A model generated the notes under the pieces. That model was not told the origin of the DNA, did no database searches, and saw only the letters and a program-made list of their open reading frames with translations. A program made the translations under genes and the position numbers. Shown in pieces: positions 1-12,424 of a DNA stretch of 12,424 bases (within the stretch, counting starts at the first letter, position 1; each line of letters opens with the position of its first letter). Where the stretch lies: IMG/VR virus record IMGVR_UViG_2737471831_000003, positions 1 through 12,424 of that record, one strand, 5' to 3'. Source of the stretch: a virus. Taxonomy: Duplodnaviria; Heunggongvirae; Uroviricota; Caudoviricetes.

Positions 1-1131
1 TCACCATGCTACTTTGCTCCATCCTTTGCCTCGGTCGTCATGATAACGATCGGTTTGTTGTTGTGTTTTGTGACCAAGTAGTTTTTGTGTATCTAACCCC
101 TGTTCTTTATACAGGCGTTCAGATAACGACCTTTGCTCATGGAATGTTGCAGGTGAACCTTTCCCCCAGTCAATTCCTGCTAAGTCCCTCGCTTTACTGA
201 AATTCATCGTCAATGTGTTAGATTTAACCTGTGTTCCACGTTCAGCCTGTGAAGTCGTACGGGAAAAATGTACAAGGTATGGGCTGACTGCATAGTCACG
301 GCAGCGGGCTACTACATCGCGTAAACTCCAGTTAATCGCATTGAGGTGAAGAGAAAGAGGAATTGCGATTTTGCTCCCGGTCTTTTCCTGAATGACGTGA
401 AGATGATCCTCCCAAATATCACTAAATTTCATTTTGGATATATCTCCCAAACGCTGCCCAGTGACTAAAGCTAGGAGCATGGCATTTCCCATGTAACGAT
501 GAGTGGCGTCTGCGATATCGAATATTTTTTGCCATTCTTCCAGGCTGAGGCGTTGACGGGTAATTTTTCTTCTTGGTTGTTTAGTGGCTAATGCTGGGTT
601 ATAGCCAGGCGGAACTTCGCCGTAATGCTGTGCTTCCTTAAACACATCGATCAATACAGACCTTACGACTTGGGCCATTCTCGGCTGTCCCGCAGAGATA
701 TACTCTTCAAGCAATTGTGCTATATCTCTGACATCAACGGCCGAGATCAACTTCATTCCTGCTCTTTCCCTGAGCAAGGATACTGGTTTGGCTTTCTGCT
801 TATAGGTGTTGAGTCTTATATCACCACTTTTCAGCCTATCGTCTTGGATAGCCTGGTAACGGTCTAACCATGTAGATGTTGTGATCGCTTTTCCTTTGCT
901 GGTTGCGATCCTGTCACTGATAGCCAGAATCTGCCGGGTTCTTTGTTCAGCCAGTCGAGTGTTGGCCTCAGTGGCAATAGCGATAGCTTCAGCTTCGTTT
1001 GTTCCCAAAGCATGGAATTTTCCTGTTACTGGATGCTTATACCGCCAATAGACTTTATTTACCTTTCGGCTATAAAGCGGATATAAGTTAGGGACTGAAA
1101 CATTATTCTTACGCGGTCTGGCTGCCATCAC
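1..1131 (-). CDS. int: Tyrosine recombinase, lambda Int-family phage integrase
   Basis: 376-aa ORF. By-eye alignment to lambda Int: N-terminal PNLY arm-binding region; catalytic region TFHEQRSLSERLY...LLGHK...RYHDDRG (lambda: TFHELRSLSARLY...LLGHK...QYRDDRG) with conserved His and Tyr-nucleophile context. Stop codon at positions 1-3; first codon GTG at 1131, ATG at 1128; 5' end overlaps xis by 23 nt as in lambda. Confidence 0.93.
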   Translation of the reverse strand: MMAARPRKNNVSVPNLYPLYSRKVNKVYWRYKHPVTGKFHALGTNEAEAIAIATEANTRLAEQRTRQILAISDRIATSKGKAITTSTWLDRYQAIQDDRLKSGDIRLNTYKQKAKPVSLLRERAGMKLISAVDVRDIAQLLEEYISAGQPRMAQVVRSVLIDVFKEAQHYGEVPPGYNPALATKQPRRKITRQRLSLEEWQKIFDIADATHRYMGNAMLLALVTGQRLGDISKMKFSDIWEDHLHVIQEKTGSKIAIPLSLHLNAINWSLRDVVARCRDYAVSPYLVHFSRTTSQAERGTQVKSNTLTMNFSKARDLAGIDWGKGSPATFHEQRSLSERLYKEQGLDTQKLLGHKTQQQTDRYHDDRGKGWSKVAW

Positions 1132-1354
1132 TCAAAATCCGTTGCAAAAGTAATGAGTCATTTTTCTTAATTACTGGTGTTACCAGCTCTCCAACTAACT
1201 CGGCGTCCTCACGCACTCGCCATAACCGGCCTTGTTTCATGGCCGGTGGACAAAATAAATTCTGCTTAGCATAACGACGCAATGTGGACACACTTGGAGG
1301 ATTACTTCTGTATTTTTCAGAAGCCCATTCTTCAAGAGTTAACATTTGAAGCAT
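1109..1354 (-). CDS. xis: Excisionase (lambda Xis-like)
   Basis: 81-aa ORF; LTLEEW...PPSVSTLRRYAKQNLFCPP.K.GR resembles lambda Xis LTLQEW...PRSLETVRRWVRECRIFPPPVKDGR. RBS AAGGTGA 6 nt upstream of ATG at 1354 (second in-frame ATG at 1345). Overlaps the int start. Confidence 0.85.
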   Translation of the reverse strand: MLQMLTLEEWASEKYRSNPPSVSTLRRYAKQNLFCPPAMKQGRLWRVREDAELVGELVTPVIKKNDSLLLQRILSDGSQTA

Positions 1355-1397
1355 ATGCGATCACCTTATTACTTCACTAACTGTTCAGTCTCTGCAT

Positions 1398-1700
1398 ATC
1401 GACCCTGCAAGGTCGATTAGTTTCTCCACAAAACAGAGAAGAGCACCTGTGGCCACAACTACCAGGATGGATTGGGTTATGAGCCCGTCGTCCGGTGATG
1501 CTCTTCTCTGTTTTGTAAAAAGGACGGTACCAGCCGGAAGCAAGGGTACAAGCTGGTACCGCCAGGACTACACACAGCATAAAGTTGTGGTTCCGGGGGC
1601 CTCCCGGTGCCTGGCGAAGGTTGCACACCAGGCGGGTGGGTATCCACAGAAGGTCGACTGTCAGCCTCAACCTTAACCCGCGTGCGCTGAGCCGCATTCA
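1398..1700. other. GC-rich, highly self-complementary intergenic element (candidate structured RNA or protein-binding site); function unknown
   Basis: Contains a perfect 18-bp inverted repeat, a perfect 9-bp inverted repeat (1526-1534 GGTACCAGC / 1552-1560 GCTGGTACC, 17-nt loop) and a 7-bp hairpin (1398-1404 ATCGACC / 1411-1417 GGTCGAT). ORFs called here translate to Arg/Pro/Gly/Cys-rich peptides typical of non-coding GC-rich sequence. Confidence 0.35.
1428..1516. repeat. Perfect 18-bp inverted repeat flanking a 53-bp spacer
   Basis: 1428-1445 ACAAAACAGAGAAGAGCA is the exact reverse complement of 1499-1516 TGCTCTTCTCTGTTTTGT; read directly from the sequence. Confidence 0.85.
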
Positions 1701-1816
1701 CCACAACGCTAAGGATTCTCTCTGGTTGAAAATACTTAGCTGTTATGTGCCTGTCTTTTCACCACTTCAGGCTCGGTGGTATCCTTTTAAGCCCGTATTC
1801 ATAAAAGGAAAATCAA

Positions 1817-2062
1817 ATGACTTTTGATGAAAAAGAACTTGATAATGCAATTAATAAAATCATCGTAACGTCGCTCTTTTCCTGTCTCAGCGACACTCAG
1901 CAGAAACAGTTCTACGAATCGGCTTTCAACATGATCGAGCGTTGTTGTTTCTGCGATGCCGACGAGTTACCTGAAAAAATCAGGAAACAGTTGGCTGATG
2001 CTCTTCGAGTGCGACTTTTTGACCAATTTTCTGAAATGTACTCTCCGAATTTGGACAAATAG
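1817..2062 (+). CDS. Hypothetical small protein (81 aa)
   Basis: ATG at 1817 preceded by AAGGA (1805-1809) at 7-nt spacing; helical-looking, non-repetitive translation; imperfect hairpin 2073-2096 shortly after the stop. The 3' end overlaps the convergent minus-strand ORF 1980-2255, so only one of the two may be real. Confidence 0.45.
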   Translation: MTFDEKELDNAINKIIVTSLFSCLSDTQQKQFYESAFNMIERCCFCDADELPEKIRKQLADALRVRLFDQFSEMYSPNLDK

Positions 2063-2255
2063 AAAAAGGCCATTTCCATTCAGGGTCTGATGGAAAGACT
2101 TCAGCCTGTTCCAAAGCACGGCGTAAAGAGAACACAACTCCAGCCATAATCTGATGTTTCCCATTGGTCCAGCTATCGCCGCTCTGAGCTACAGGAGCGG
2201 CTATGTCGTATGACCAAACGACTTCACCACTATTGTTTAAAATCTGGACTTTCAT
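1980..2255 (-). CDS. Hypothetical protein (91 aa), early-left operon position
   Basis: ATG at 2255 lies 9 nt downstream of the stop of the zinc-finger ORF (operon-like packing); GGAGG is 12 nt upstream, a long spacing. The C-terminal third overlaps the plus-strand ORF 1817-2062 and passes through the 2073-2096 hairpin. Confidence 0.35.
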   Translation of the reverse strand: MKVQILNNSGEVVWSYDIAAPVAQSGDSWTNGKHQIMAGVVFSLRRALEQAEVFPSDPEWKWPFSICPNSESTFQKIGQKVALEEHQPTVS

Positions 2256-2263
2256 TTTGTTCT

Positions 2264-2485
2264 TTAACCTCCAGATTTCCGCGCATCTAAAGGCGCATTC
2301 TCATTTGGTGTGAACTGAATAGTTGTGCTGATATTGATTAATGCCCCGACACACAAGACTACGCACTCAGAGCAGATAGCAACTTCATCTTTTCCGCCTT
2401 TGGCGATGATTTTTTTTGCCTGCAGCTCGTTTGCGCCACAAAACGAGCATGTGAAATAACGGTTCATTTGCGCTCTCTTACACAT
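2264..2485 (-). CDS. Small protein with ClpX-type C4 zinc-finger motif
   Basis: CSFCGANELQAKKIIAKGGKDEVAICSECVVLC matches the ClpX N-terminal zinc-binding domain pattern (CSFCGK...x18...ICDECVDLC). Likely start is the internal ATG at 2467 (67 aa; GAGAG 5 nt upstream) rather than 2485. Confidence 0.7.
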   Translation of the reverse strand: MCKRAQMNRYFTCSFCGANELQAKKIIAKGGKDEVAICSECVVLCVGALINISTTIQFTPNENAPLDARKSGG

Positions 2486-2564
2486 AGTATTTAACGAATC
2501 ATCTTGGACTTCATATGCCCCAGGCGGCTACTTCGTGGGCGTCCTGCCTGTTCATTGTTTTAAC

Positions 2565-2625
2565 ATCTTTAAGTTGTAATTTAGTTGTGGTTTTGAATAT
2601 TGTCAACAACTTTATGTGGTTTGAA
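2565..2625. promoter_or_regulatory. Putative OL operator/promoter cluster (AAGTTGT / ACAACTT heptamers)
   Basis: AAGTTGT at 2571-2577, AGTTGTG at 2583-2589 and ACAACTTTATG at 2606-2616; the same heptamers and the ACAACTTTATG motif recur in the cI-cro intergenic region. Lies between divergent genes (zinc-finger ORF leftward, TerB/BRCT ORF rightward). Confidence 0.4.
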
Positions 2626-2669
2626 CGAGTAGCCAAGGAGTGCAAGGATTATCAAAAAAAGGAGGTTGT

Positions 2670-3560
2670 ATGGAAGACGCGCTTTACGCTTTTAATTACA
2701 CACAGAACCGGGACAAGTTATTTGCTAACTTGATTAGCATAATTGATGGAATCATTGCAGATGGAGTTGTCCGTGAAGAGGAGGTTCTTTACTTAGATAC
2801 ATGGTTACTTGAAGCAAAGCAGATTATCAATAATGGAGTTATAAAAAGTCTATCAGCACGGGTGTCGGATATTCTTGCGGATGGAATAATCACATCAGAA
2901 GAACGTGATGACCTTAAAAATAGCCTTCTCCAAATACAGAGGGAAATTCTTGATATCCCTGAAATTGATTTTTACTCCAAGGATGTAGATGTCCATTTAC
3001 TTAATGGACTATGTAAAGGATTAATTGCTGATCGGAACTTAACTCAAGAAGAAATAAGATATCTTAATTGGTGGCTTGAGCAAAATGGAGCTTTGAAGAA
3101 CAACTACCCAGGAAAAAAACTTTATGCACTTGTAAAGGAAATTCTTAAAGATGGGGTTATTACTGAAGATGAGAGTTTAACTCTACATAAGGCATTAGTA
3201 GACTTCACAGGATGTGACTTGGAAAGTGGGGTGGTGGATGGTTTGGCGACCAGGCTGCCTATTGATGTAGGGGCTTCGATAGAGTTAGAGGGTAAAACCT
3301 ATTGTCTTACAGGCACTTTTGTTGCAGGAAAGAGAGCCGTAGTTGAAAATTTGATTAAAAATGCTGGTGGGAACATCAGTAGTGGAATTACTCAAAAGTT
3401 GGATTTTTTAGTAATTGGGACGCTTTCCTCCCGTGATTGGAAATTCTCAAGTCACGGAAGGAAGATCGAAAAAGCTATATCTTATAGGGATGATAATGGT
3501 GCAAAACTTAAAATTATTTCTGAAGAAATGCTTTTCGATGCATTACCAAGTTCGCGATGA
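2670..3560 (+). CDS. Protein with four TerB-like helical repeats and a C-terminal BRCT domain (296 aa)
   Basis: ATG at 2670 preceded by AGGAGG (2660-2665); in-frame GTG at 2640. Four repeats of the form h-ADG-h-h-T/R-x-E-E (IADGVVREEEVLYL, LADGIITSEERDDL, IADRNLTQEEIRYL, LKDGVITEDESLTL) resemble TerB/DjlA-N motifs. C-terminus GKTYCLTGTFVAGKRAVVENLIKNAGGNISSGITQKLDFLVIG...KLKIISEEMLFDAL matches the BRCT pattern of NAD-ligase C-termini. AT-rich; 3' end overlaps the cI 3' end by 18 nt. Confidence 0.8.
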   Translation: MEDALYAFNYTQNRDKLFANLISIIDGIIADGVVREEEVLYLDTWLLEAKQIINNGVIKSLSARVSDILADGIITSEERDDLKNSLLQIQREILDIPEIDFYSKDVDVHLLNGLCKGLIADRNLTQEEIRYLNWWLEQNGALKNNYPGKKLYALVKEILKDGVITEDESLTLHKALVDFTGCDLESGVVDGLATRLPIDVGASIELEGKTYCLTGTFVAGKRAVVENLIKNAGGNISSGITQKLDFLVIGTLSSRDWKFSSHGRKIEKAISYRDDNGAKLKIISEEMLFDALPSSR

Positions 3561-4229
3561 CCAGAATACCCTACCTATAACATGAATTCTGGCTCGTCTA
3601 TCTTCAAAGGTGAGTATTTCATCTGGGTACTCATCTTTGTTGAAGCTTCTAAGAATCAAGCCACCGTCAGGTAAGTTGATAAGTATTTTAACCCTTAGCA
3701 ATACACCATCTCGTACGGCATAAAGATCGCCATCACGAATAGGAACGGTTTGAGAAATATCAACGGCAACAAGATCTCCATTATTGAGAACCGGTAATAA
3801 ACTGTTCCCCCATATTTTTACGATCTTGGCATTAGATGCACATACGCCAGATTTTCTCAAATCTGCTCTTCTTAACGGAAACCAGTCAATAGCTGATTCA
3901 ACTATTTCAGCCAGACATCCGTTACCTGCCGATAACTCGACATCTAAAACAGGAATGTTTACGAAAATATCGGGGTCTAATGCGGTGCTTTCTGCTTCTT
4001 TTACAACAAGATCAGGTATGGATGCGTTGTCTTCAATACCAAGTTGTAACCACTTTTGTGATACACCTAAAACTTTTGCAATTTCTTTAATTTTGCGCGG
4101 TTGTAGAGTTTCGCCATTCTCTATTTTGGCTACAGATTGTTGTGAAAGTCCAATTTTTTCAGCTAGTTGAGCTTGGCTCATGCCAGCTTTCTCTCTACCT
4201 ATCTTTAATCGTTCTGCCAGTGTTTTCAC
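3543..4229 (-). CDS. cI: Prophage repressor, cI/LexA-type (XRE HTH + S24 peptidase domain)
   Basis: 228 aa; N-terminal HTH (MSQAQLAEKIGLSQQSVAKIENGE); C-terminal S24-like autocleavage domain (GNSLLP...GDLVAVD...LLRVKIL). GTG start at 4229 with GAGGG 7 nt upstream; divergent from the cro-like gene. Confidence 0.9.
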   Translation of the reverse strand: MKTLAERLKIGREKAGMSQAQLAEKIGLSQQSVAKIENGETLQPRKIKEIAKVLGVSQKWLQLGIEDNASIPDLVVKEAESTALDPDIFVNIPVLDVELSAGNGCLAEIVESAIDWFPLRRADLRKSGVCASNAKIVKIWGNSLLPVLNNGDLVAVDISQTVPIRDGDLYAVRDGVLLRVKILINLPDGGLILRSFNKDEYPDEILTFEDRRARIHVIGRVFWSSRTW

Positions 4230-4254
4230 AACATATCCCTCTCTTTTTTGATGA

Positions 4255-4345
4255 GGTTACAACTTTATGTTTTAGCTTTCCAACACCTAAAAGTTGTGAT
4301 AAAAGTTGTTAATGTTGTATTCTTGCAACTCGTAACAACTTAACT
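4255..4345. promoter_or_regulatory. Putative OR operator/promoter region (pRM/pR) between cI and cro
   Basis: ACAACTT at 4259-4265 and 4335-4341; AAGTTGT at 4291-4297 and 4303-4309; these are the same half-sites as in the 2565-2625 cluster. Sits in the 135-bp divergent intergenic region. Confidence 0.5.
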
Positions 4346-4364
4346 ACCTAAAAAGGAGAAAGCT

Positions 4365-4613
4365 ATGACACCTGAGCAATTAGCCTTATCGGAGGCAATC
4401 GCTCTGGCTGGTGGTCAATCAGAATTGGCTCGGAAGCTCACAGCCAGCAGCGGTCATTTAGTAAAGCAACAACATGTCTGGAACTGGTTGAACAGAGAAA
4501 AGCGTCCCCCTGCAAAGCTCTCGATATTCATTGAAAAGACCACTGGCATATCAAAAGAAAAATTACGTCCAGATATTTTTCAAAAGATTAAAGATTCATC
4601 AGATGAAAAGTAA
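4365..4613 (+). CDS. Cro/YdaS-like small HTH regulator
   Basis: 82 aa; AGGAG at 4354-4358, 6 nt before the ATG; GGQSELARKL...V.NWL.......P......IEK.TG.SKEKLRPDIF pattern as in YdaS/Cro-type proteins; first gene rightward of the repressor. Confidence 0.8.
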   Translation: MTPEQLALSEAIALAGGQSELARKLTASSGHLVKQQHVWNWLNREKRPPAKLSIFIEKTTGISKEKLRPDIFQKIKDSSDEK

Positions 4614-4635
4614 CCACAGTTTTAAGGAGATAGCC

Positions 4636-5187
4636 GTGGGTAAGCATCACTGGAAAGTAGAAAAACAGCCTAAGTGGTACGTGAAAGCTGTCAGAAAAAC
4701 TATCGCAGCGTTGCCGGGGGGTTACGCTGAAGCTGCTGACTGGCTGGATGTAACAGAGAACGCATTATTTAACCGCCTTCGTGCCGATGGCGATCAGATT
4801 TTCCCGCTGGGATGGGCAATGATTTTGCAACGTGCTGGTGGAACTCACTTCATTGCTGACGCTGTGGCGCAGTCTGCAAATGGCGTCTTTGTGTCTCTTC
4901 CTGATATCGAGGATGTGGACAACGCCGATATCAACCAACGCCTGCTGGAGGTCATTGAACAGATCGGCAGTTATTCAAAACAGATTCGTTCAGCAATTGA
5001 AGACGGTGTAGTTGAACCGCATGAGAAGACAGCAATTAACGATGAGCTGTACCTCTCAATTTCGAAGCTGCAGGAGCATGCAGCACTGGTCTACAAAATC
5101 TTTTGCGTTTCAGAAAGTAGTGACGCCCGCGAGTGTGCAGCTCCGGGCGCCGTGGCGTGTCGTGACTGTGGAGAAACTAACGCATGA
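4636..5187 (+). CDS. Hypothetical regulatory protein in the cII position, possibly YdaT-family
   Basis: Strong RBS AAGGAG (4624-4629) 6 nt before in-frame GTG at 4636; alternative ATG at 4603 overlaps the cro stop. The family assignment is from memory of YdaS-YdaT pairs and is tentative. Confidence 0.55.
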
Positions 5188-5522
5188 ACAGTTTAACAAC
5201 ACACTACCGTCGCTCGCAACTGATTGCGCTTCCGGTTCCGGGTGGAAAAGCGAAGGTGGAGTATTGCTATGCAGTGAATGTACCAGGTGACAGGGAAATT
5301 GTAACCCACAGCTTTGCAGAGTGGGCTGTGGGTGATTTCAACCGGCAGAAGGAGACAGTCCTTTGCGACAAGTTAACCGCTGGTTCAAAGATCACTACGG
5401 AGTGCCCGTCAGAGTCATTCGTTGGGAACCGGAAACACAACGGGTTATCTACCTCCGCGAAGGTTATGAGCATGAATGCTTCAGTCCGCTCGAACAGTTT
5501 CGTCGTAAATTCAGGGAAATAG
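5184..5522 (+). CDS. Hypothetical protein (112 aa, ATG-initiated); C-terminal half doubtful
   Basis: ATG at 5184 overlaps the upstream stop (ATGA coupling). The N-terminal ~55 aa look protein-like, but the C-terminal half is Ser/Asn-rich and low-complexity, while an alternative frame over the same DNA looks more protein-like. Confidence 0.3.
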
Positions 5523-5542
5523 AGGTCGGTCATGAGCACTAA
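5363..5542 (+). CDS. Alternative small ORF (59 aa, TTG start), frame-2
   Basis: AAGGAG at 5349-5354 lies 8 nt before TTG at 5363. Translation [59 protein letters not shown] is charged and non-repetitive; stop at 5540-5542 overlaps the start of the replication gene. Confidence 0.35.
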
Positions 5543-6473
5543 ATTAACCGGCTATGTATGGGATGGTTGCGCTGCATCAGGCATGAAGTTATCCAGCGTG
5601 GCAATTATGGCCCGCCTGGCTGATTTCAGTAATGACGAAGGTGTGTGCTGGCCATCAATTGAAACCATTGCCCGTCAGATTGGCGCGGGGATGAGTACCG
5701 TCAGAACGGCTATCGCACGGCTGGAAGCAGAAGGCTGGTTAACGCGTAAGGCGCGTCGCCAGGGTAACCGCAATGCGTCGAATGTTTATCAGCTTAACGT
5801 TGCGAAGCTTCAGGCAGCGGCATTTTCTCAACTGTCAGATTCTGACCCGTCAAAATCTGACGCATCAAAATCTGACCCGTCAAAATTTGATGCGTCGAAA
5901 TCTGGGAAAAAAGCGGGTTTTCACCCGTCAGAATCTGGTGGGGATCCGTCAGTAAAATCAAAACATGATCCGTCAGATAAAAAACCTTCTCGTCCGGACG
6001 CTTCGCAACCGGACACGCAGAAGGCTGAACAGGATTTTTTAACTCGCCATCCTGATGCGGTTGTATTCAGCCCTAAAAAGCGCCAGTGGGGAACGCAGGA
6101 TGATTTGACCTGCGCACAGTGGCTCTGGAAAAAAATCATCGCCCTGTACGAGCAGGCCGCCGAATGTGACGGCGAGGTGGTTCGTCCCAAAGAACCGAAC
6201 TGGACAGCCTGGGCAAACGAAATTCGCCTGATGTGTGTGCAGGATGGTCGTACTCACAAACAAATCTGCGAGATGTACAGCCGCGTCAGCCGCGATCCGT
6301 TCTGGTGCCGTAACGTGCTCAGCCCGTCGAAGCTGCGGGAAAAATGGGATGAGCTTTCCCTGCGCTTATCGCCGTCCGTCAGCACGTACACCGAAAAACG
6401 CGAAGACCCGTACTTCAAAGCCAGTTACGACAACGTGGACTACAGCCAGATCCCGGCAGGATTCAGGGGGTGA
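5532..6473 (+). CDS. Phage replication initiation protein (N-terminal winged-HTH, low-complexity linker, DnaT-like C-terminus)
   Basis: 313 aa; GAGGT 5 nt before the ATG. N-terminal HTH typical of phage replication initiators (SIETIARQIGAGMSTVRTAIARLEAEGWL); central SDPSK-type linker encoded by the iteron array; C-terminus ends ...NWTAWANEIRL...QIPAGFRG, resembling (from memory) the C-terminal domain of primosomal protein DnaT (...IPPGFRG). Confidence 0.8.
   Translation: MSTKLTGYVWDGCAASGMKLSSVAIMARLADFSNDEGVCWPSIETIARQIGAGMSTVRTAIARLEAEGWLTRKARRQGNRNASNVYQLNVAKLQAAAFSQLSDSDPSKSDASKSDPSKFDASKSGKKAGFHPSESGGDPSVKSKHDPSDKKPSRPDASQPDTQKAEQDFLTRHPDAVVFSPKKRQWGTQDDLTCAQWLWKKIIALYEQAAECDGEVVRPKEPNWTAWANEIRLMCVQDGRTHKQICEMYSRVSRDPFWCRNVLSPSKLREKWDELSLRLSPSVSTYTEKREDPYFKASYDNVDYSQIPAGFRG
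5831..5985. repeat. Iteron-like direct repeat array (15-bp period), candidate replication origin
   Basis: Four consecutive 15-bp units at 5842-5901 (CTGACCCGTCAAAAT, CTGACGCATCAAAAT, CTGACCCGTCAAAAT, TTGATGCGTCGAAAT), plus degenerate CCGTCAG-containing copies to about 5980 and an A-rich stretch (5976-5985). Confidence 0.6.
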
Positions 6474-6475
6474 TC

Positions 6476-6964
6476 ATGAGTCTTTTGAATGAAGTTCAGA
6501 AATTCATTGAAGCCCATCCGGGGTGTACTTCCGGAGACATTGCGGATGCTTTTGCAGGTTATTCACGGCAGCGCGTTCTGCAGTCTGCAAGCAAGTTACG
6601 TCAGAGTGGGCGTGTGGCTCACCGTTGTGAAGGAGATACACGCAGACATTTCCCGCGCCTGACTGAGAGAGCGCAGGAGCCGGAACCACAACCAGTTCGT
6701 GAAACCAGACCTGTGCGCAATTTCTATGTCGGCACTAACGATCCCCGGGTGATTTTGTGCCTGACCCGCCAGGCTGAAGAACTGGAGTCAAGGGGCTTAT
6801 ACCGTCGTGCTGCAACCGTGTGGATGGCGGCATTCCGTGAAAGCCACTCCCAGCCAGAACGAAACAATTTTCTGGCGCGTCGTGAGCAGTGCTTACAGAA
6901 AAGCAGCAAGCGCGCTGCATCGGGTGAAGAGTGGTATCTGTCAGGGAATTACGTGGGGGCGTAA
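6476..6964 (+). CDS. PerC-like transcriptional regulator domain protein
   Basis: ATG at 6476 with GGGGG 5 nt upstream (GTG at 6470 also in frame). C-terminal AEELESRGLYRRAATVWMAAF resembles the PerC/Pch motif (A..LE.RGLWRRAA..W), recalled from memory. Confidence 0.55.
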   Translation: MSLLNEVQKFIEAHPGCTSGDIADAFAGYSRQRVLQSASKLRQSGRVAHRCEGDTRRHFPRLTERAQEPEPQPVRETRPVRNFYVGTNDPRVILCLTRQAEELESRGLYRRAATVWMAAFRESHSQPERNNFLARREQCLQKSSKRAASGEEWYLSGNYVGA

Positions 6965-7290
6965 TGACGACGTTAACTCAATGCCAGCAGCAGGTGCTGG
7001 ATATGCTGATTTCTTATCAGAAAGAGCGTGGCTTTCCGCCAACCAATCAGGAGGTGGCAACCATGCTGGGATACCGTTCGGTGAATGCAGCGGTGGAGCA
7101 TCTTCGCGCACTGGAGAAAAAAGGCGTCATCACGATAAAGCGTGGCGTGGCACGGGGGATAACGCTTCATACCGCTGTGAAGGACGACGACAGCGAGGCG
7201 GTCGGGATTATCCGCGCACTGCTTGCCGGTGAGGAAAACGCCAGGCTGCGTGCAGCCCACTGGTTACATGAGAGGGGCCTGAAAGTATGA
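6964..7290 (+). CDS. LexA N-terminal DNA-binding-domain-only protein (no S24 peptidase domain)
   Basis: ATG at 6964 overlaps the upstream stop (TAATG). QQQVLDMLISYQKERGFPPTNQEVATMLGYRSVNAAVEHLRALEKKGVITIKRGVARGITL aligns closely with E. coli LexA residues ~8-70 ([61 protein letters not shown]). The protein ends after ~108 aa with no catalytic Ser/Lys domain. Confidence 0.8.
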   Translation: MTTLTQCQQQVLDMLISYQKERGFPPTNQEVATMLGYRSVNAAVEHLRALEKKGVITIKRGVARGITLHTAVKDDDSEAVGIIRALLAGEENARLRAAHWLHERGLKV

Positions 7291-7676
7291 AGCTGATTCT
7301 GCCTTTTCCGCCCAGCGTGAACACGTACTGGCGACACCCCAACAAAGGGGCGTTTGCTGGTAAGAGCCTGATAAGCGCGGCGGGGCGCAAATTCCAGAGC
7401 GCGGCGTGTGCAGCAATAGTTGAGCAGTTACGTCGTCTGCCAAAACCAACGTCGGCACCTGCTTCAGTGGAGATCGTGTTGTTTCCACCGGATAACCGGA
7501 TCCGCGATCTGGACAACTATAACAAGGCGCTGTTTGACGCCCTGACCCACGCGGGTGTGTGGGAGGACGACAGTCAGGTGAAAAGAATGCTGGTGGAGTG
7601 GGGGCCGGTTATCCCGGAAGGGAAGGTCGAGATCACTATCAGTAAGTACGAGAAAACGGCGGGTGCAGCCGCCTGA
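7287..7676 (+). CDS. rusA: Holliday-junction resolvase RusA
   Basis: 129 aa; LPFPPSVNTYWR and RDLDNYNKALFDALTHAGVWEDDSQV match the RusA motifs ([38 protein letters not shown]). ATG overlaps the upstream stop (ATGA). Confidence 0.92.
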   Translation: MKLILPFPPSVNTYWRHPNKGAFAGKSLISAAGRKFQSAACAAIVEQLRRLPKPTSAPASVEIVLFPPDNRIRDLDNYNKALFDALTHAGVWEDDSQVKRMLVEWGPVIPEGKVEITISKYEKTAGAAA

Positions 7677-7695
7677 TTAAGAGGAGAAACGAAGT

Positions 7696-8493
7696 ATGAA
7701 TAATCTGATGGTCATTGATGGTATTGAAGTTCGTCGTGATGCTTATGGGCGTTACAGCCTGAACGATCTGCACAGGGCTGCCGGTTCTCAGGATAAGCAT
7801 AAGCCTGCATTTTGGCTCCGCAATGAGCAAACCGAACGTTTAATAAGCGAGTTGCAGATTTGCAACTCGGTCAATATAGAGCCAGTTAACGTTATTCGTG
7901 GCGGAAATAACCAGGGGACGTATGTCTGCAAAGAACTGGTGTATGCCTATGCAATGTGGATCAGTCCGTCATTCCATCTGAAGGTGATCCGTACTTTCGA
8001 TATGGTAACCAGCGCACCGGAAAAATTATCCGGGCAGGCTGCTGACAAGATGCAGGCTGGTGTGATTCTGCTGGACTTTATGCGTCGGGAGTTAAACCTG
8101 TCTAACTCATCTGTGCTTGGGGCCTGTCAGAAACTCCAGGAGGCTGTTGGTTTACCGAATCTGGCACCGCGCTATGCCATTGATGCCCCTGCTGATGCAC
8201 ACGATGGCTCAAGTCGCCCGACACTGTCACTGAGTGCACTGCTGAAACAGTATGGTATCCGCCTTACGGCTAATCAGGCATATCACCAGATGGTGAAACT
8301 GGGGATCGTCGAACAGCGCGAACGATACAGCCGTACCGCGATTAATAACATCAAAAAATTCTGGTCGCTGACGGCGAAAGGCTGCATGTTCGGCAAGAAC
8401 ATCACCAGTCCGGCAAATCCGCGTGAGACGCAGCCGCATTTCTTCGAATCCCGATTCCCTGAGCTGTTAAAGCTGCTCGATACCGTTCATTGA
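7696..8493 (+). CDS. KilA-N domain protein
   Basis: 265 aa; GAGGAG RBS at 7681-7686. N-terminal ~100 aa (IDGIEVRRDAYGRYSLNDLHRAAG...PAFWLRNEQT...YVCKELVYAYAMWISPSFHLKVIRTF) fit the KilA-N DNA-binding domain pattern. Confidence 0.8.
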   Translation: MNNLMVIDGIEVRRDAYGRYSLNDLHRAAGSQDKHKPAFWLRNEQTERLISELQICNSVNIEPVNVIRGGNNQGTYVCKELVYAYAMWISPSFHLKVIRTFDMVTSAPEKLSGQAADKMQAGVILLDFMRRELNLSNSSVLGACQKLQEAVGLPNLAPRYAIDAPADAHDGSSRPTLSLSALLKQYGIRLTANQAYHQMVKLGIVEQRERYSRTAINNIKKFWSLTAKGCMFGKNITSPANPRETQPHFFESRFPELLKLLDTVH

Positions 8494-8494
8494 G

Positions 8495-9490
8495 GTGACC
8501 GTGAGAGCGCTACTGACCCCTGAGATTGCCCCGCGTATGGGGATCGTATTGTTCAGACCCGGTTCAGAGCTGATGCCCCTGTTTATGCAGGGGCGTGTCC
8601 TGCTGGAGCCTGAGCCGGAGCGTTATTCATCTTTCGCCAGTGGTGCCGTTCCGGCGGCATCACAACCGCTGGCGGATGATCCTGCCGTTCGGGCCGTGTT
8701 CCGCAATGAGGCAGTGATCCGTCGTGCTGGTGGCGTGGAATGTCTTGAAAGCTGGTTACTTCGTGAAAAAGGCTGCCAGTGGCCTCATTCCGACTGGCAC
8801 AGCGAGAACATGACAACAATGCGACACGCTCCGGGCGCAATCCGTCTGTGCTGGCACTGCGATAACCAGCTGCGCGATCAGTTCACGGAACGGCTGGAAT
8901 CAATGGCAACGGATAACTGTGCCCGCTGGGTGTTGTCTGTTGTGCGTCGGGATCTCGGTTTTGATGATAGTCACGTTGTGACAATGCCGGAACTGTGCTG
9001 GTGGCTGATTCGTAATGACCTGGCGGATGCCTTACCGGAAAGTGCAGCCCGTAAGGCACTGAGATTACCGAGGCCTGTTGTGCCGTCTGTCACCCGGGAA
9101 AGTGACCTTGTGCCTTCGGTTCCTGCCACCAGCATCATCCAGGATAAAGCGAAAAAGGTGCTGGCGCTGAAAGTGGATCCGGAGTCGCCGGAGTCTTTTA
9201 TGTTACGCCCAAAACGTCGCCGCTGGGTTAATGAAAAGTACACGCGCTGGGTTAAGACACAGCCGTGTGCATGTTGTGGAAAGCCTGCTGATGATCCCCA
9301 CCACCTGATAGGTCACGGTCAGGGTGGAATGGGAACAAAAGCGCATGACCTCTTTGTGTTGCCTTTGTGCAGAAAGCATCACGACGAGCTGCATGCGGAT
9401 ACCGTGGCATTTGAAGAGAAGTATGGCTCCCAGCTGGAGCTGATATTTCGTTTTATCGATCGTGCGCTGGCAATTGGCGTGCTGGCCTGA
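8495..9490 (+). CDS. DUF968-like phage protein with C-terminal Cys/His-rich (HNH-like) motif
   Basis: 331 aa; likely start GTG at 8501 (GAGG 5 nt upstream) rather than 8495. C-terminal CACCGKPADDPHHLIGHGQGG...HDLFVLPLCRKHHDELH is a zinc-binding/HNH-like signature; the position after rusA/KilA-N matches DUF968 genes in Qin-type prophages (from memory). Confidence 0.65.
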   Translation: MTVRALLTPEIAPRMGIVLFRPGSELMPLFMQGRVLLEPEPERYSSFASGAVPAASQPLADDPAVRAVFRNEAVIRRAGGVECLESWLLREKGCQWPHSDWHSENMTTMRHAPGAIRLCWHCDNQLRDQFTERLESMATDNCARWVLSVVRRDLGFDDSHVVTMPELCWWLIRNDLADALPESAARKALRLPRPVVPSVTRESDLVPSVPATSIIQDKAKKVLALKVDPESPESFMLRPKRRRWVNEKYTRWVKTQPCACCGKPADDPHHLIGHGQGGMGTKAHDLFVLPLCRKHHDELHADTVAFEEKYGSQLELIFRFIDRALAIGVLA

Positions 9491-9507
9491 TTTTGTGGAG
9501 AAAGTTG

Positions 9508-9855
9508 ATGCGTGATATGTATGAAGTATTGGACCGCTGGGGAGCATGGGCTGCAGCAGATAACAGTGGCGTGGACTGGCAGCCGATAGCTGCAGGCTTC
9601 AAGGGGCTTTTACCTCATGGCAAAAAGTCCCGGATTCAGTGTGATGATGACGAAGGCATTATGATAGACAGTTGTGTGGCTCGGTTGAGAAAGTATAAAC
9701 CAGAGGAATATGAGCTAATCATAGCTCACTTTGTCATTGGTATCTCATTACGCACTATTGCCAAGAAGAGAAGATGTTCAGATGGCACAGTTAGGAAAAA
9801 ATTGCAGACTGCCTTGGGGTTTGTTGAAGGATGTATTTGTTTGATTGAGTTCTAA
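9508..9855 (+). CDS. Q: Late-gene antiterminator Q (phage 82/QuuD-like family)
   Basis: ATG at 9508 with GGAG 7 nt upstream (an upstream TTG at 9493 is also in frame). VLDRWGAWAA...DWQPIAAGFKGLL...SRIQCDDDEGIM resembles E. coli QuuD as recalled; Cys pairs consistent with a Q zinc finger; last early-right gene before the lysis cassette. Confidence 0.75.
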   Translation: MRDMYEVLDRWGAWAAADNSGVDWQPIAAGFKGLLPHGKKSRIQCDDDEGIMIDSCVARLRKYKPEEYELIIAHFVIGISLRTIAKKRRCSDGTVRKKLQTALGFVEGCICLIEF

Positions 9856-9883
9856 AAAGAATGAGGCGTAAGCCTCATTCTTT
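9856..9883. terminator. Bidirectional intrinsic terminator between Q and the convergent membrane-protein gene
   Basis: Perfect 12-bp stem (9856-9867 AAAGAATGAGGC / 9872-9883 GCCTCATTCTTT) with GTAA loop, A-run on one side and T-run on the other. The minus-strand gene's stop codon (9875-9877) lies in the stem. Confidence 0.75.
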
Positions 9884-10444
9884 ATCTTTAATTATAAGTT
9901 TCGATTTTTCATCATGCATTTTGTCTATCATAAAATACATACCTAATGCCGTTGTGTATATAATGTTGCATATGGTACTTAAATAAATAAACAAAAGTAA
10001 TGATTTCACTAGTGGATATGATGAAAGGTGTAATTCCTTGATGCTTGCACTGGTTAGTTGAAGTGCTCCTCCAACGAAATACAGCGCGATGCTCATAAAC
10101 GCTAAATAACCAAATAGATAAGTGAGGAATTTACGCCTTGTAAGTTTTTTACCTTTTAATACCGGAGGTATGCCATGCATAACTTCATCCATACCATCCT
10201 TACTGAAGGTTGCAACTGCAGCCATAGATGCAATGTAAAAACCAGATAGTATTTGAAGTATCCCGTTTACTAAAGACACAAGACTATCCTTCCCGAGAAG
10301 TGAGATGGTTTTCGGTAAGTAATAGATGGATAAAGTAATAATTGCAGCAGTGAAAATGGGTAAAACCCAGTCAAAAAATCGCTTCTCAGGATGCTTTATG
10401 CGTAGGTAGTCTATAGGTGTAAAAACCTTAGATAAAACATACAT
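9875..10444 (-). CDS. Small integral membrane protein, 4 predicted TM helices (189 aa)
   Basis: Start ATG at 10444 with AGGAGG 5 nt upstream (the longer ORF to 10537 would overlap the upstream gene). Four hydrophobic segments: FFDWVLPIFTAAIITLSIYYL, LVSLVNGILQILSGFYIASMAAVATF, FLTYLFGYLAFMSIALYFVGGAL, LVKSLLLFIYLSTICNIIYTTALGMYFMI. AT-rich. Confidence 0.75.
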   Translation of the reverse strand: MYVLSKVFTPIDYLRIKHPEKRFFDWVLPIFTAAIITLSIYYLPKTISLLGKDSLVSLVNGILQILSGFYIASMAAVATFSKDGMDEVMHGIPPVLKGKKLTRRKFLTYLFGYLAFMSIALYFVGGALQLTSASIKELHLSSYPLVKSLLLFIYLSTICNIIYTTALGMYFMIDKMHDEKSKLIIKDKE

Positions 10445-10476
10445 ATATGCCTCCTTTTGACAGGTTTTCCATGCCT

Positions 10477-11412
10477 TCACTTTAACATAAAGTTTTGCAT
10501 TTTTGCGAGAAGTTCTTCGTGAAATGCTGTTTGGCAAACGGCAATTGTTGATGCCAACACTGCTTTTTCACGTTGTGCCAATTGTGCTGTTGCGAGTTCC
10601 TGTAAGCTCATTTCTTTTCCGATGGAAACAAGATCTGATGAAACGCGTTTATTTTTGTCTTTATAAGAAATTCTTAACATTGTATACTTTCTACCACGAA
10701 GTTTGTCATATGCAGACTTAATCGCCTTAATTGCACCCTCTCCGCGACGTATTTTTGTTGATAGCTTTAGTGTTTCTTCTTCAACCATTACTGTGCCATC
10801 ATCATCTAAAGAGTTATCTTTAAAGCGACGAGTAGCAGTAAGTCCACATAAATAACCAGTGGATAGAGATTGCTCAAGTGTTGTTGCAGCCAAAAAATCA
10901 ATGTCGAAAATAGGTCTGCACTTAAGTTCTTTTTTCCCTCCTGAACGGATAAAGGAAAAATTATTTTCTCGCAGGAAATAAGTTAAAGCTTGGGCTAATA
11001 AACCTCTGGTAATGCCCGGAACTTCTTCTAAAATTGCCTCATAACAATCTTGGAATGATGAGTCGCTCGGTCTTTTTTTGATAAGCACATGAGCAGAGTA
11101 CCCCATACCTTCATCATTTTGCTTTTTCTCAATTCTGGTTTCACCAGTTTTTATGTTGGAAAAGGCGGGATCAGAAGCATCTTTATTTATATATTGAAAA
11201 AGCAATTTCAGGTAATTTTCATCGTCTTTTATGGATAGCAATCTTATGACAGAACGTCCTTTGTTTAATTCGTAAACAGCTTCTCCTTTGTTATAGCGAT
11301 TTTTTAAAACAGGAATACAGTTTACTAAAGGCATGTCAGGTGCGTCATTAGGATACTTCTTTAAAGTAACCTGGCATTTGATCATGAAACGTTCATTATC
11401 TCCCAAGAGCAT
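10477..11412 (-). CDS. Hypothetical soluble protein (311 aa) with a possible Pol-beta-type nucleotidyltransferase signature
   Basis: ATG at 11412 with AAGGA 6 nt upstream; AT-rich. IRSGGKKELKCRPIFDIDFL (residues ~156-175) fits the hG[GS]-x9-13-DhDh pattern; an acidic cluster SLDDDG lies ~30 residues downstream. No family recognised with confidence. Confidence 0.7.
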   Translation of the reverse strand: MLLGDNERFMIKCQVTLKKYPNDAPDMPLVNCIPVLKNRYNKGEAVYELNKGRSVIRLLSIKDDENYLKLLFQYINKDASDPAFSNIKTGETRIEKKQNDEGMGYSAHVLIKKRPSDSSFQDCYEAILEEVPGITRGLLAQALTYFLRENNFSFIRSGGKKELKCRPIFDIDFLAATTLEQSLSTGYLCGLTATRRFKDNSLDDDGTVMVEEETLKLSTKIRRGEGAIKAIKSAYDKLRGRKYTMLRISYKDKNKRVSSDLVSIGKEMSLQELATAQLAQREKAVLASTIAVCQTAFHEELLAKMQNFMLK

Positions 11413-11472
11413 ATCTGTTCCTTATACGAGCACTAATACTGATTGCTGTTTTTAGTTCAGCAGAACCAAAGG

Positions 11473-11501
11473 TTAACTGATTGTGCTTGATAGTATATAT
11501 T
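11473..11501 (+). promoter_or_regulatory. Putative late promoter (pR'-like)
   Basis: TTAACT (11473-11478), 17-bp spacer, TATATT (11496-11501), in an AT-rich region about 240 bp upstream of the holin and about 70 bp upstream of a plus-strand terminator hairpin. Sequence-only prediction. Confidence 0.3.
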
Positions 11502-11566
11502 TTTCACTAACGCGTACGCAAAAAGTATTGTATCGTGTTAAGAGTGGTTACTTCGCCACACAACTT

Positions 11567-11596
11567 AAACCCGCCGCTGAGCGGGTTTTGTCGTTT
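11567..11596 (+). terminator. Putative tR'-like intrinsic terminator upstream of the lysis genes
   Basis: 8-bp stem (11567-11574 AAACCCGC / 11581-11588 GCGGGTTT) with 6-nt loop CGCTGA, followed by TGTCGTTTCT. Confidence 0.5.
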
Positions 11597-11740
11597 CTGG
11601 GCCTAGGGATTCGTTGGGCCTGGTCTATCCCGCAGTTATCCATTGGCTCGGCTTCTTTGACGTTTCCGCTTCTGATTTGCGGTACATGATGTTCCCTCAA
11701 TTTGCACCTGCTGTATCAGCGAGGTGAGAGATAACTACAA

Positions 11741-12067
11741 ATGCCTCATAACCCAAATACCTGGCTGGAGTTGGTCCAGAGCTGGTGGCGTGGAGACACA
11801 CCGCTGGGCGCAGTGATTATGTCGATTGTTATGGCTGGTTTACGTATTGCCTATTTTGGCGGTGGTGGCGGCTGGAAGCGAAAAACACTCGAAATTCTAC
11901 TCTGTGGCGCTCTGACGCTGACTTTTGCATCCGCTCTTGAGTATGTCGGATGGCCTAAATCACTATCTGTTGCCATTGGTGGTGGGGTGGGGCTGATCGG
12001 TGTCGATGCTATTCGTGGGGCTGCAATGAGAGTAATCGGTAACAAGTTTGGTGGCTCTAAGGAGTAA
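11741..12067 (+). CDS. S: Holin, lambda S-like (class I)
   Basis: 108 aa with three hydrophobic segments and a charged C-terminus, similar in size and hydropathy to lambda S; stop 3 nt before the endolysin start. Confidence 0.8.
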   Translation: MPHNPNTWLELVQSWWRGDTPLGAVIMSIVMAGLRIAYFGGGGGWKRKTLEILLCGALTLTFASALEYVGWPKSLSVAIGGGVGLIGVDAIRGAAMRVIGNKFGGSKE

Positions 12068-12070
12068 TTT

Positions 12071-12424
12071 ATGCAGGTACTAAATTCCCAGCGTAAAGCT
12101 TTCCTCGATATGGTGGCATGGTCAGAAGGAACGGATAACGGGCGACAACCGACACGTAACCACGGTTATGATGTTATTGTTGGCGGCGAACTGTTTACTG
12201 ATTACTCCGATCACCCTCGCAAACTTGTCACGCTAAACCCCAAACTCAAATCAACAGCCGCCGGGCGTTATCAGCTTCTTTCACGCTGGTGGGATGCTTA
12301 CCGTAACCAGCTTGGTTTGAAAGACTTTTCCCCCAAAAGCCAGGACGCAGTGGCATTGCAGCAGATTAAAGAGCGTGGTGCTTTACCGATGATTGATCGC
12401 GGTGATATGATCCTACCCACGTAA
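12071..12424 (+). pseudogene. R: Endolysin R (lambda-type lytic transglycosylase), truncated after ~112 codons
   Basis: AAGGAG 6 nt before the ATG. The first ~112 residues are near-identical to lambda R as recalled (NSQRKAFLDM.AWSEGTDNGRQ.TRNHGYDVIVGGELFTDYSDHPRKLVTLNPKLKST.AGRYQLLSRWWDAYR.QLGLKDFSPKSQDAVALQQIKERGALPMIDRGD); the frame then reads MILPT-stop, encoded by IS-end sequence. Lambda R is 158 aa. Confidence 0.85.
12408..12424. mobile_element. Terminal inverted repeat of an IS3-family element (IS3 IRR-like) at the window edge
   Basis: TGATCCTACCCACGTAA matches the outer end of the IS3 right inverted repeat as recalled (TGATCCTACCCACGTAATATGGACACAGGCC...). The element body lies beyond the window. 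Confidence 0.6.

Follow-up and report, generated by a model that had tools for sequence, protein, structure and literature searches.

A DnaT-like C-terminal peptide on a lambda-O-type phage initiator encoded without a helicase loader, and the association of such peptides with loader type

The replication initiators of phages lambda and phi80, O and gp15, are encoded after cro and cII in the rightward early operon, combine a winged-helix N-domain, iterons in the linker region, a globular C-domain and a short disordered C-terminal peptide ending in ...D(L/F)xNTDW(I/A)YGV, and are paired with P and gp14, respectively; in lambda, genetics assigned the interaction with P to the C-terminal half of O. 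Here, we analyzed the initiator gene of a 12,424-nt stretch of Caudoviricetes DNA (IMG/VR record IMGVR_UViG_2737471831_000003, positions 1 to 12,424; hereafter, the window), the 313-aa product of which occupies the same operon position and shares this anatomy, including a homologous C-domain, but carries an HTH_36 N-domain, ends in ...IPAGFRG and is not accompanied by a P-like gene.

A terminal peptide of this type is found, likewise on a disordered tail, at the extreme C-terminus of Escherichia coli DnaT, which joins PriA and PriB on forks, whereas the window initiator would bind a specific origin. The dnaT gene lies upstream of dnaC, with its stop codon 2 nt from the dnaC start (L454 1739-3018), and two relatives of the initiator (P0117 and P0245) are likewise encoded upstream of a DnaC homologue, unlike the window gene. 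The same tail class and the same position after ydaS/ydaT-like genes are shared by the ydaU-ydaV module of the Rac prophage and by modules combining a GFRG-tailed initiator with a DnaC-like protein. Such modules encode their own DnaC homologue, whereas the window module encodes none, and YdaU consists of a DUF1376 N-domain and a DnaT-like C-terminal region in contrast to the O-type C-domain of the window initiator. Lone initiators with an internal origin, reliant on host DnaB loading, were reportedly classified as 'initiator-solo' modules by Weigel and Seitz in 2006, a classification that is said to have left the recruitment of the host helicase unexplained; the rule relating tail class to loader type described below is a candidate explanation for it. 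Finally, a parallel between O-P, DnaT-DnaC and the DopC-DopE pair of Cellvibrionales and Oceanospirillales was drawn by Brezellec et al. 2017 (PMC5509034). Similar to the window initiator, DopC is O-like, with an HTH_36 N-domain and a DnaT C-terminal motif, but its gene is chromosomal and domesticated and contains no iterons, and its partner is a P-like loader (PMC5509034).

The 313-aa protein matched PHROG 391 ('replication initiation O-like') over its full length (E 8.6e-136, residues 1-313 on profile positions 1-298 of 298), which, together with the internal iterons and the homology to lambda O, bore out its identification as the origin-binding initiator of the phage in a first-pass annotation made by a model from the sequence alone. 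By sequence and anatomy, it is a member of the lambda-O-like family that lacks the usual P partner and the P-type tail. The gene is ordinary in itself and very common in E. coli/Shigella prophages: it was matched in 2749 of the 5426 complete E. coli genomes, phage SfIV, which forms plaques, encodes a 99% identical protein (gp41), and existing annotations name it 'helix-turn-helix domain-containing protein', 'replication protein O' or 'primosomal protein (I)'.

With regard to the domain plan (Table 1), HTH_36 at the N-terminus was the sole Pfam match in the whole protein; DnaD_N matched the same domain under the family cutoff, the Phage_rep_O subtype (PF04492) of lambda and phi80 was not recovered there by Pfam, and NCBIfam returned winged-helix regulator matches alone, all of them sub-threshold. 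The AlphaFold2 (AF2) model of this domain comprised a helix-turn-helix and a beta-hairpin, with predicted local distance difference test (pLDDT) scores of 66-86, and the domain presumably binds the iterons of the origin. The acidic, serine-rich linker that follows is encoded by the iterons. The globular C-domain, which the AF2 monomer showed as helical over residues 162-280, ahead of a tail disordered at residues 284-313, had 37.9% identity to lambda O at residues 162-277 (E 8e-18) and 35% identity to phi80 gp15 (E 4e-18), both in tblastn searches; a profile search with it recovered 6110 cluster representatives at E<=1e-3, and its structural neighbours in BFVD were phage replication proteins. 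Mean pLDDT was 81.5 for the model of residues 168-313, which covers the C-domain and the tail.

The translated protein ends in ...VDYSQIPAGFRG (also given as ...NVDYSQIPAGFRG), and E. coli DnaT in ...SEPDSQIPPGFRG. In both proteins, the similarity lies at the very end, where 8 of 9 residues are identical (SQIPAGFRG and SQIPPGFRG); the DnaT end given in the first-pass annotation is correct, and the full DnaT sequence compared here agrees with PDB 9zbt_D at every residue. The pair was matched by BLASTP at E 0.009, and alignment of the initiator family with the DnaT family by hhalign paired the 18 terminal columns (E 1.1e-4). Across the initiator family, P308, G310, F311 and R312 were invariant or nearly so. 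In relatives of the initiator with the tail QRCVNHISEPDTEIPPGFRG or RDINTISEVDTRIPEGFRG, 14 of 20 positions were identical with DnaT tails, and 16 of 20 were identical to DnaT in the Rac YdaU tail, LRQVNTVSLPDSAIPPGFRG.

The resemblance to DnaT is limited to this tail. The Pfam DnaT family (PF17948) gave no match to residues 167-313 even at E<=10, while it matched DnaT residues 88-153 at E 3.6e-21, and global alignment of a broader O-domain profile with DnaT yielded a probability of 0.4%. Neither Pfam nor hhalign found the three-helix domain of DnaT that binds single-stranded DNA (ssDNA; residues 84-153) in the initiator, and BLASTP and hhalign revealed no similarity outside the tail to the N-terminal oligomerisation domain or the acidic PriB-binding linker of DnaT. 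Since the DNA-binding domain and the N-domain of DnaT were looked for in this way and not found, the initiator is not a member of the DnaT family. Thus, of the DnaT-like C-terminus claimed in the first-pass annotation, the tail stood, as did its alignment over the terminal columns, but the NWTAWANEIRL segment belongs to the O-type domain and the remaining C-terminal region did not align with DnaT.

An identical 24-residue tail, REDPYFKASYDNVDYSQIPAGFRG, was found on at least five otherwise different initiator bodies, including those of phage cdtI (orf46) and PhiR40_1. Since their C-domains are unrelated, the tail behaves as a portable module. A match of 9 residues only, as seen in the window initiator, might in principle reflect chance or convergence in a defective, non-replicating remnant, and CPS-53 of E. 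coli K-12, which presumably carries a decayed copy of the module, would be in line with such a remnant. This explanation is largely refuted and scarcely credible to us: the family as a whole conserves the motif, 14-16 of 20 residues are shared in relatives, and in YdaU the similarity reaches into the three-helix domain (DnaT residues 110-178, E 1e-8). Furthermore, the same module works in SfIV, which is UV-inducible and plaque-forming (PMC3851460), so that a module of the window type replicates productively in its phage lineage.

The phage carries no helicase loader of its own. Although the whole early operon, from cro to Q, is contained in the window, nothing like DnaC/IstB, lambda P, DnaB or primase was detected when its sizeable open reading frames (ORFs) were all scanned with PHROG and Pfam, and a Walker A motif was absent from all window ORFs of at least 80 aa. 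Similarly, neither an AAA+ fold with Walker A nor a Phage_lambda_P domain was found in the initiator or its neighbours. When all six frames of the window and of the complete SfIV genome (39.8 kb, no loader annotated) were searched by hmmsearch with DnaC and lambda-P hidden Markov models (HMMs), the best E was 0.24, which is noise. These results agree with the first-pass annotation, which had reported no adjacent P- or DnaC-type loader, a PerC-like next gene and a need for the helicase-loading machinery of the host, the last of which follows from the absence of a phage loader.

The PerC-like gene itself, also annotated as yfdN, might encode a loader that escapes recognition: it was the first gene downstream in 92 of 108 loci with the tail subclass of the window, and other solo initiators also precede small winged-helix proteins. 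We consider this highly improbable, since the YfdN/PerC-like protein lacks an NTPase motif and its match is to a family of transcription activators, and since cdtI, an inducible phage, carries this tail without any YfdN-like gene, dam lying directly downstream of its initiator. In addition, similar winged-helix or DUF1627/DUF977 genes follow the DnaC homologue in modules that contain a loader, which indicates a third gene of the module rather than a replacement for the loader. In fact, a small winged-helix protein (YfdN/PerC-like, DUF1627, DUF977 or unnamed) was almost always encoded after the initiator or, if present, after the loader (L339-L453, L099-L218, L085-L088, L456-L458). Solo modules therefore look like initiator-loader-winged-helix modules from which the loader has been lost.

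In order to relate tails to loaders across phages, IMG/VR contigs were scanned for tail-coding DNA patterns, and the downstream ORFs were classed with the DnaC and P HMMs; DNA patterns were employed instead of a search by C-terminal alignment, in which every locus retrieved was 98-100% identical to the query. The C-termini of proteins with an O-type domain fell into three classes, ...IPxGFRG, ...D(F/L/W)xNTDW(A/I)xG... and ...HWNSxEAWE.... All 91 evaluable loci with D[FW]xNTDWA tails had a P-like gene (scored if it lay within 600 nt downstream) and none a DnaC-like gene. Among the 106 evaluable loci with SEPDxxIPxGFRG tails, 51 had a DnaC-like gene and 55 neither type, with no P-like gene in any of them, and the 100 evaluable loci with DYxxxPxGFRG tails, the subclass of the window, had neither without exception. 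No hidden Walker-A NTPase was found downstream in the loader-less groups. Overall, in about 300 loci, many of them related, there was no exception to the prediction of loader type from tail class, with 59 (NTDW), 30 (SEPD with a DnaC-like gene) and 17 (SEPD without a loader) distinct final 60-residue sequences.

The same partition was observed among individual relatives. P0042, with an N-domain 83% and a C-domain 76% identical to those of the window initiator, has an NTDW tail and is followed by a Phage_lambda_P gene, while P0117 (65% and 71%, respectively) has a DnaT-like tail and is followed by a gene for a full-length DnaC homologue (PDB 6qel_G, E 4.5e-74). Within the family of the window initiator, the globular domains do not decide the loader partner. 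Furthermore, phi80 gp15, with its NTDW tail, is followed by the P-like gp14, P0277 (NTDW) and P0251 (HWNS) by a Phage_lambda_P gene, and P0245, with a DnaT-like tail, by a full-length DnaC homologue; for the GFRG-tailed P0280, P0275, P0295, P0091, P0288 and P0259, no loader gene comes next. Neither portable tail classes nor an exceptionless link to the loader were found described in the accessible literature, and no paper on the tail was found among those on 'initiator-solo' modules, on DnaT with prophage or loader, or on YdaU/YdaV (open-access texts only, which makes this weak evidence). The DnaT resemblance and loader-less initiators as such were already known.

Some additional tails and neighbours were recorded in the course of the survey. 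The HWNS class, of consensus HWNSxEAWE(N/D)(T/F)(L/I), was seen upstream of a Phage_lambda_P gene in L091 (P0251) and L092 (P0359), and its tail was shared by several cluster representatives; further tails, for example ...TDYGSTGAL and ...DTSWxDDL, remained unclassed. At the usual loader position downstream of the solo GFRG-tailed P0091, a gene encodes a 706-aa KAP-family NTPase (L098 4194-6314), probably defence cargo.

Given a DnaT-type peptide and no loader gene, we propose that the initiator captures the DnaB-DnaC of the host. This proposal builds on features that are established, namely the domain plan, the iterons, the homology to lambda O, the identity of the tail, the lack of a phage loader and the association of tail with loader. 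In the mechanism envisaged, the initiator would oligomerise on its iterons at an origin inside its own gene, and the terminal peptide would act as a loader-docking element, the NTDW and HWNSxEAWE types going with lambda-P-type loaders and the IPxGFRG peptide, common to DnaT and Rac YdaU, docking DnaC-type loaders. The tail of a solo initiator would capture the host DnaB6-DnaC6 complex directly, probably via DnaC, and the initiator would play the role that DnaT has in the preprimosome, with PriA, PriB and DnaT not needed. That the initiator takes the place of DnaT is suggested by the genes found directly downstream of the tail, which encode a DnaC homologue or no loader but in no case P, and by the location of host dnaT directly upstream of dnaC. 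We give about an even chance to the reading that the tail recruits DnaC-type loaders and that a solo initiator uses host DnaB-DnaC directly, standing in for DnaT; the tail would then physically bind DnaC or DnaB-DnaC, and loading would be independent of PriA.

The first-pass annotation had favored a different route, in which the PriA/PriB/DnaT restart primosome of the host loads the helicase after origin opening, with the tail docking the initiator on PriA, PriB or DnaT. PriA-dependent loading is used by phiX174, Mu and ColE1, no phage loader is present in our case, and the tail is common to the initiator and to a component of that primosome. Nevertheless, the analysis gave no support to this route, which we regard as unlikely: the N-domain of DnaT is absent from the initiator, the three-helix domain that contacts PriA and the acidic linker that contacts PriB are absent from it or not demonstrable, and relatives encode a DnaC of their own but no analogue of PriA, PriB or DnaT. 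Moreover, the tail tracks DnaC-type loaders, and docking on PriA does not predict a tail paired with DnaC or with nothing, and never with P. In preprimosome structures (2026), the three-helix C-terminal domain of DnaT contacts PriA and ssDNA and its linker contacts PriB, the tail is not among the PriA/PriB/DnaT contacts described, and how DnaB/DnaC are recruited is described as unknown (PMC13377028). A tail outside these contacts argues against the restart-primosome route and is consistent with direct capture of DnaB-DnaC; the DnaT chains of 9ZBU were deposited as residues 1-154.

Several observations weigh against direct capture through the tail. Keck and colleagues favor the N-terminal domain of DnaT, not its tail, as the recruiter of DnaB/DnaC (PMC13377028), and DopC pairs with a P-like loader despite its DnaT C-terminal motif, for which likeness was reported to the 2ru8 domain (PMC5509034). 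With regard to our survey, 2-6 nt separate the tail-coding DNA from the gene for the loader, and physical linkage or shared mosaic ancestry could partly explain the association; many of the loci surveyed are related to each other; and the DY..IPxGFRG subclass was never found beside a phage DnaC homologue, the link to DnaC resting on the IPxGFRG core. Lastly, removal of residues 154-179 modestly weakened ssDNA binding by DnaT (PMC4132743), with dT30 binding about twofold weaker and cooperativity lower for residues 84-153 than for residues 84-179 (PMC4132743), and the tail might therefore be a DNA-binding aid.

This last point leads to a further explanation, in which the tail is a small aid to ssDNA binding or self-association and the globular O-type C-domain contacts host DnaB or DnaC. 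The contribution of DnaT residues 154-179 to ssDNA binding (PMC4132743) is in its favor, and GFRG would resemble RG-type nucleic-acid-binding motifs. We consider it quite unlikely, since it leaves unexplained a perfect partition of tail with loader when the C-domain is 71-76% identical across P- and DnaC-partnered relatives, and C-domains unrelated to this one carry an identical tail as well.

If direct capture of DnaB-DnaC by the tail holds, it would also bear on the host. In K-12, Rac ydaU ends ...VNTVSLPDSAIPPGFRG (the YdaU terminus is also given as LLRQVNTVSLPDSAIPPGFRG), ydaV starts after 6 nt (L455 1620-3230), and YdaV is 50% identical to DnaC; the host dnaT-dnaC operon has the look of a phage module that was domesticated. 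We tentatively suggest, as possible rather than probable, that lambdoid initiators choose their loader by swappable C-terminal peptides, of which IPxGFRG is the docking motif for the DnaC family. It would follow that the last ~20 residues of DnaT are the missing element that recruits DnaB-DnaC to the PriA-PriB-DnaT preprimosome, that dnaT-dnaC is a domesticated 'initiator C-terminus plus loader' module like ydaU-ydaV, and that loader-less phages present the peptide at their own origin. Among phage initiators, those of the lambda-O family and others, the disordered ends of ~10-25 residues form discrete classes, one of them identical to the tail of host DnaT, and how DnaT recruits DnaB-DnaC becomes a simple and cheap experimental question. 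The rule would explain the loader-less replication of 'initiator-only' temperate phages, including the Shigella serotype-converting SfII and SfIV, and tail class would serve as a simple annotation marker predicting the host-factor dependence of a phage.

The presumed origin lies inside the initiator gene, where the iteron array encodes the disordered SDSDPSKSDASKSDPSKFDASKS linker. Five iterons are spaced at exactly 15 bp and the sixth lies 33 bp further, a layout in line with that of ori-lambda within O; gp15 binding sites are annotated at the equivalent position of phi80 gene 15. An AT-rich unwinding element was looked for beside the iterons, and a mild dip in GC (0.42-0.45) was all that was seen. 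Iteron number differed between homologues in the family alignment (columns 100-200), and the origin array appears to expand and contract rapidly. In initiators otherwise 75-99% identical, SKSD/PSKSD peptide repeats numbered about ten in P0047, while P0019, P0029 and P0033 had none.

The window represents the early region of a lambdoid prophage of the SfII/SfIV/CPS-53 type (Table 1). Its left end carries an integrase and an excisionase, and several short genes read leftward separate these from the gene for a cI-like repressor. The YfdN/PerC-like gene is translationally coupled to the initiator gene, with a GTG at 6470 that overlaps the stop codon and an ATG at 6476, 2 nt past it. Behind it, the operon continues with genes for a LexA-N-domain protein, RusA, a KilA-N protein, a DUF968/HNH protein and the antiterminator Q, after which two minus-strand genes precede holin and lysozyme. 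A scan of the window with Rfam gave no match.

Table 1. Features of the window, with coordinates, strand and supporting evidence
Feature	Position	Strand	Evidence
cI-like repressor	3543-4229	-	
Cro-like (YdaS family) and CII-like (YmfL/Phage_CP76) genes, head of the rightward early operon	4365..5187	+	Pfam, NCBIfam
112-aa gene, function unassigned, DUF4222 in RefSeq	5184..5522	+	PHROG 1170, E 1.9e-69
Replication initiator gene, 313 aa, lambda-O-type	5532..6473	+	ORF; PHROG 391 match
N-terminal winged-helix domain, residues 1-98	5532..5825	+	Pfam HTH_36, E 4.3e-11; AF2 fold
Iteron array, six 13-15-nt repeats, GTCAAAATCTGAC-like, partly palindromic	5834..5942	.	Repeat search, family D1 and inverted repeats I3, I5, I7
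Disordered linker, residues 102-159	5835..6008	+	AF2 pLDDT <50 at 102-159
Globular C-terminal domain, residues 162-282	6015..6377	+	Homology to lambda O and phi80 gp15 C-terminal domains
Disordered C-terminal tail, residues 283-313, VSTYTEKREDPYFKASYDNVDYSQIPAGFRG	6378..6470	+	Translation; low AF2 pLDDT
DnaT-like core SQIPAGFRG	6444-6470	+	8/9 identity with DnaT terminus
YfdN/PerC-like small winged-helix protein	6470/6476..6964	+	Pfam PerC, E 6.8e-9; PHROG 1324; RefSeq yfdN
Antiterminator Q	9493-9855		

Three further loci of the window were noted. The LexA-N-domain protein (119 aa, 6931-7290, plus strand) consists of the LexA DNA-binding domain alone (Pfam E 3.7e-19), without an S24 peptidase domain, and also adjoins RusA in SfIV, cdtI and PhiR40_1; it may be a LexA mimic or competitor. 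Between Q and holin, two overlapping genes on the minus strand (9875-11412) encode a 311-aa protein that matched M53A (E 1e-17) and a 220-aa protein that matched M53B (E 2.7e-39), the two components of PDC-M53, a candidate defence system in PADLOC; the pair looks like a moron or like defence cargo, in the position near the late promoter that is usual for it. Finally, a rightward gene within the leftward early region (2640-3560, plus strand) encodes a 306-aa protein that matched phrog_3989 (E 1.7e-128), with a weak PADLOC match to PDC-S48 and a weak C-terminal likeness to the BRCT end of NAD-dependent DNA ligases.

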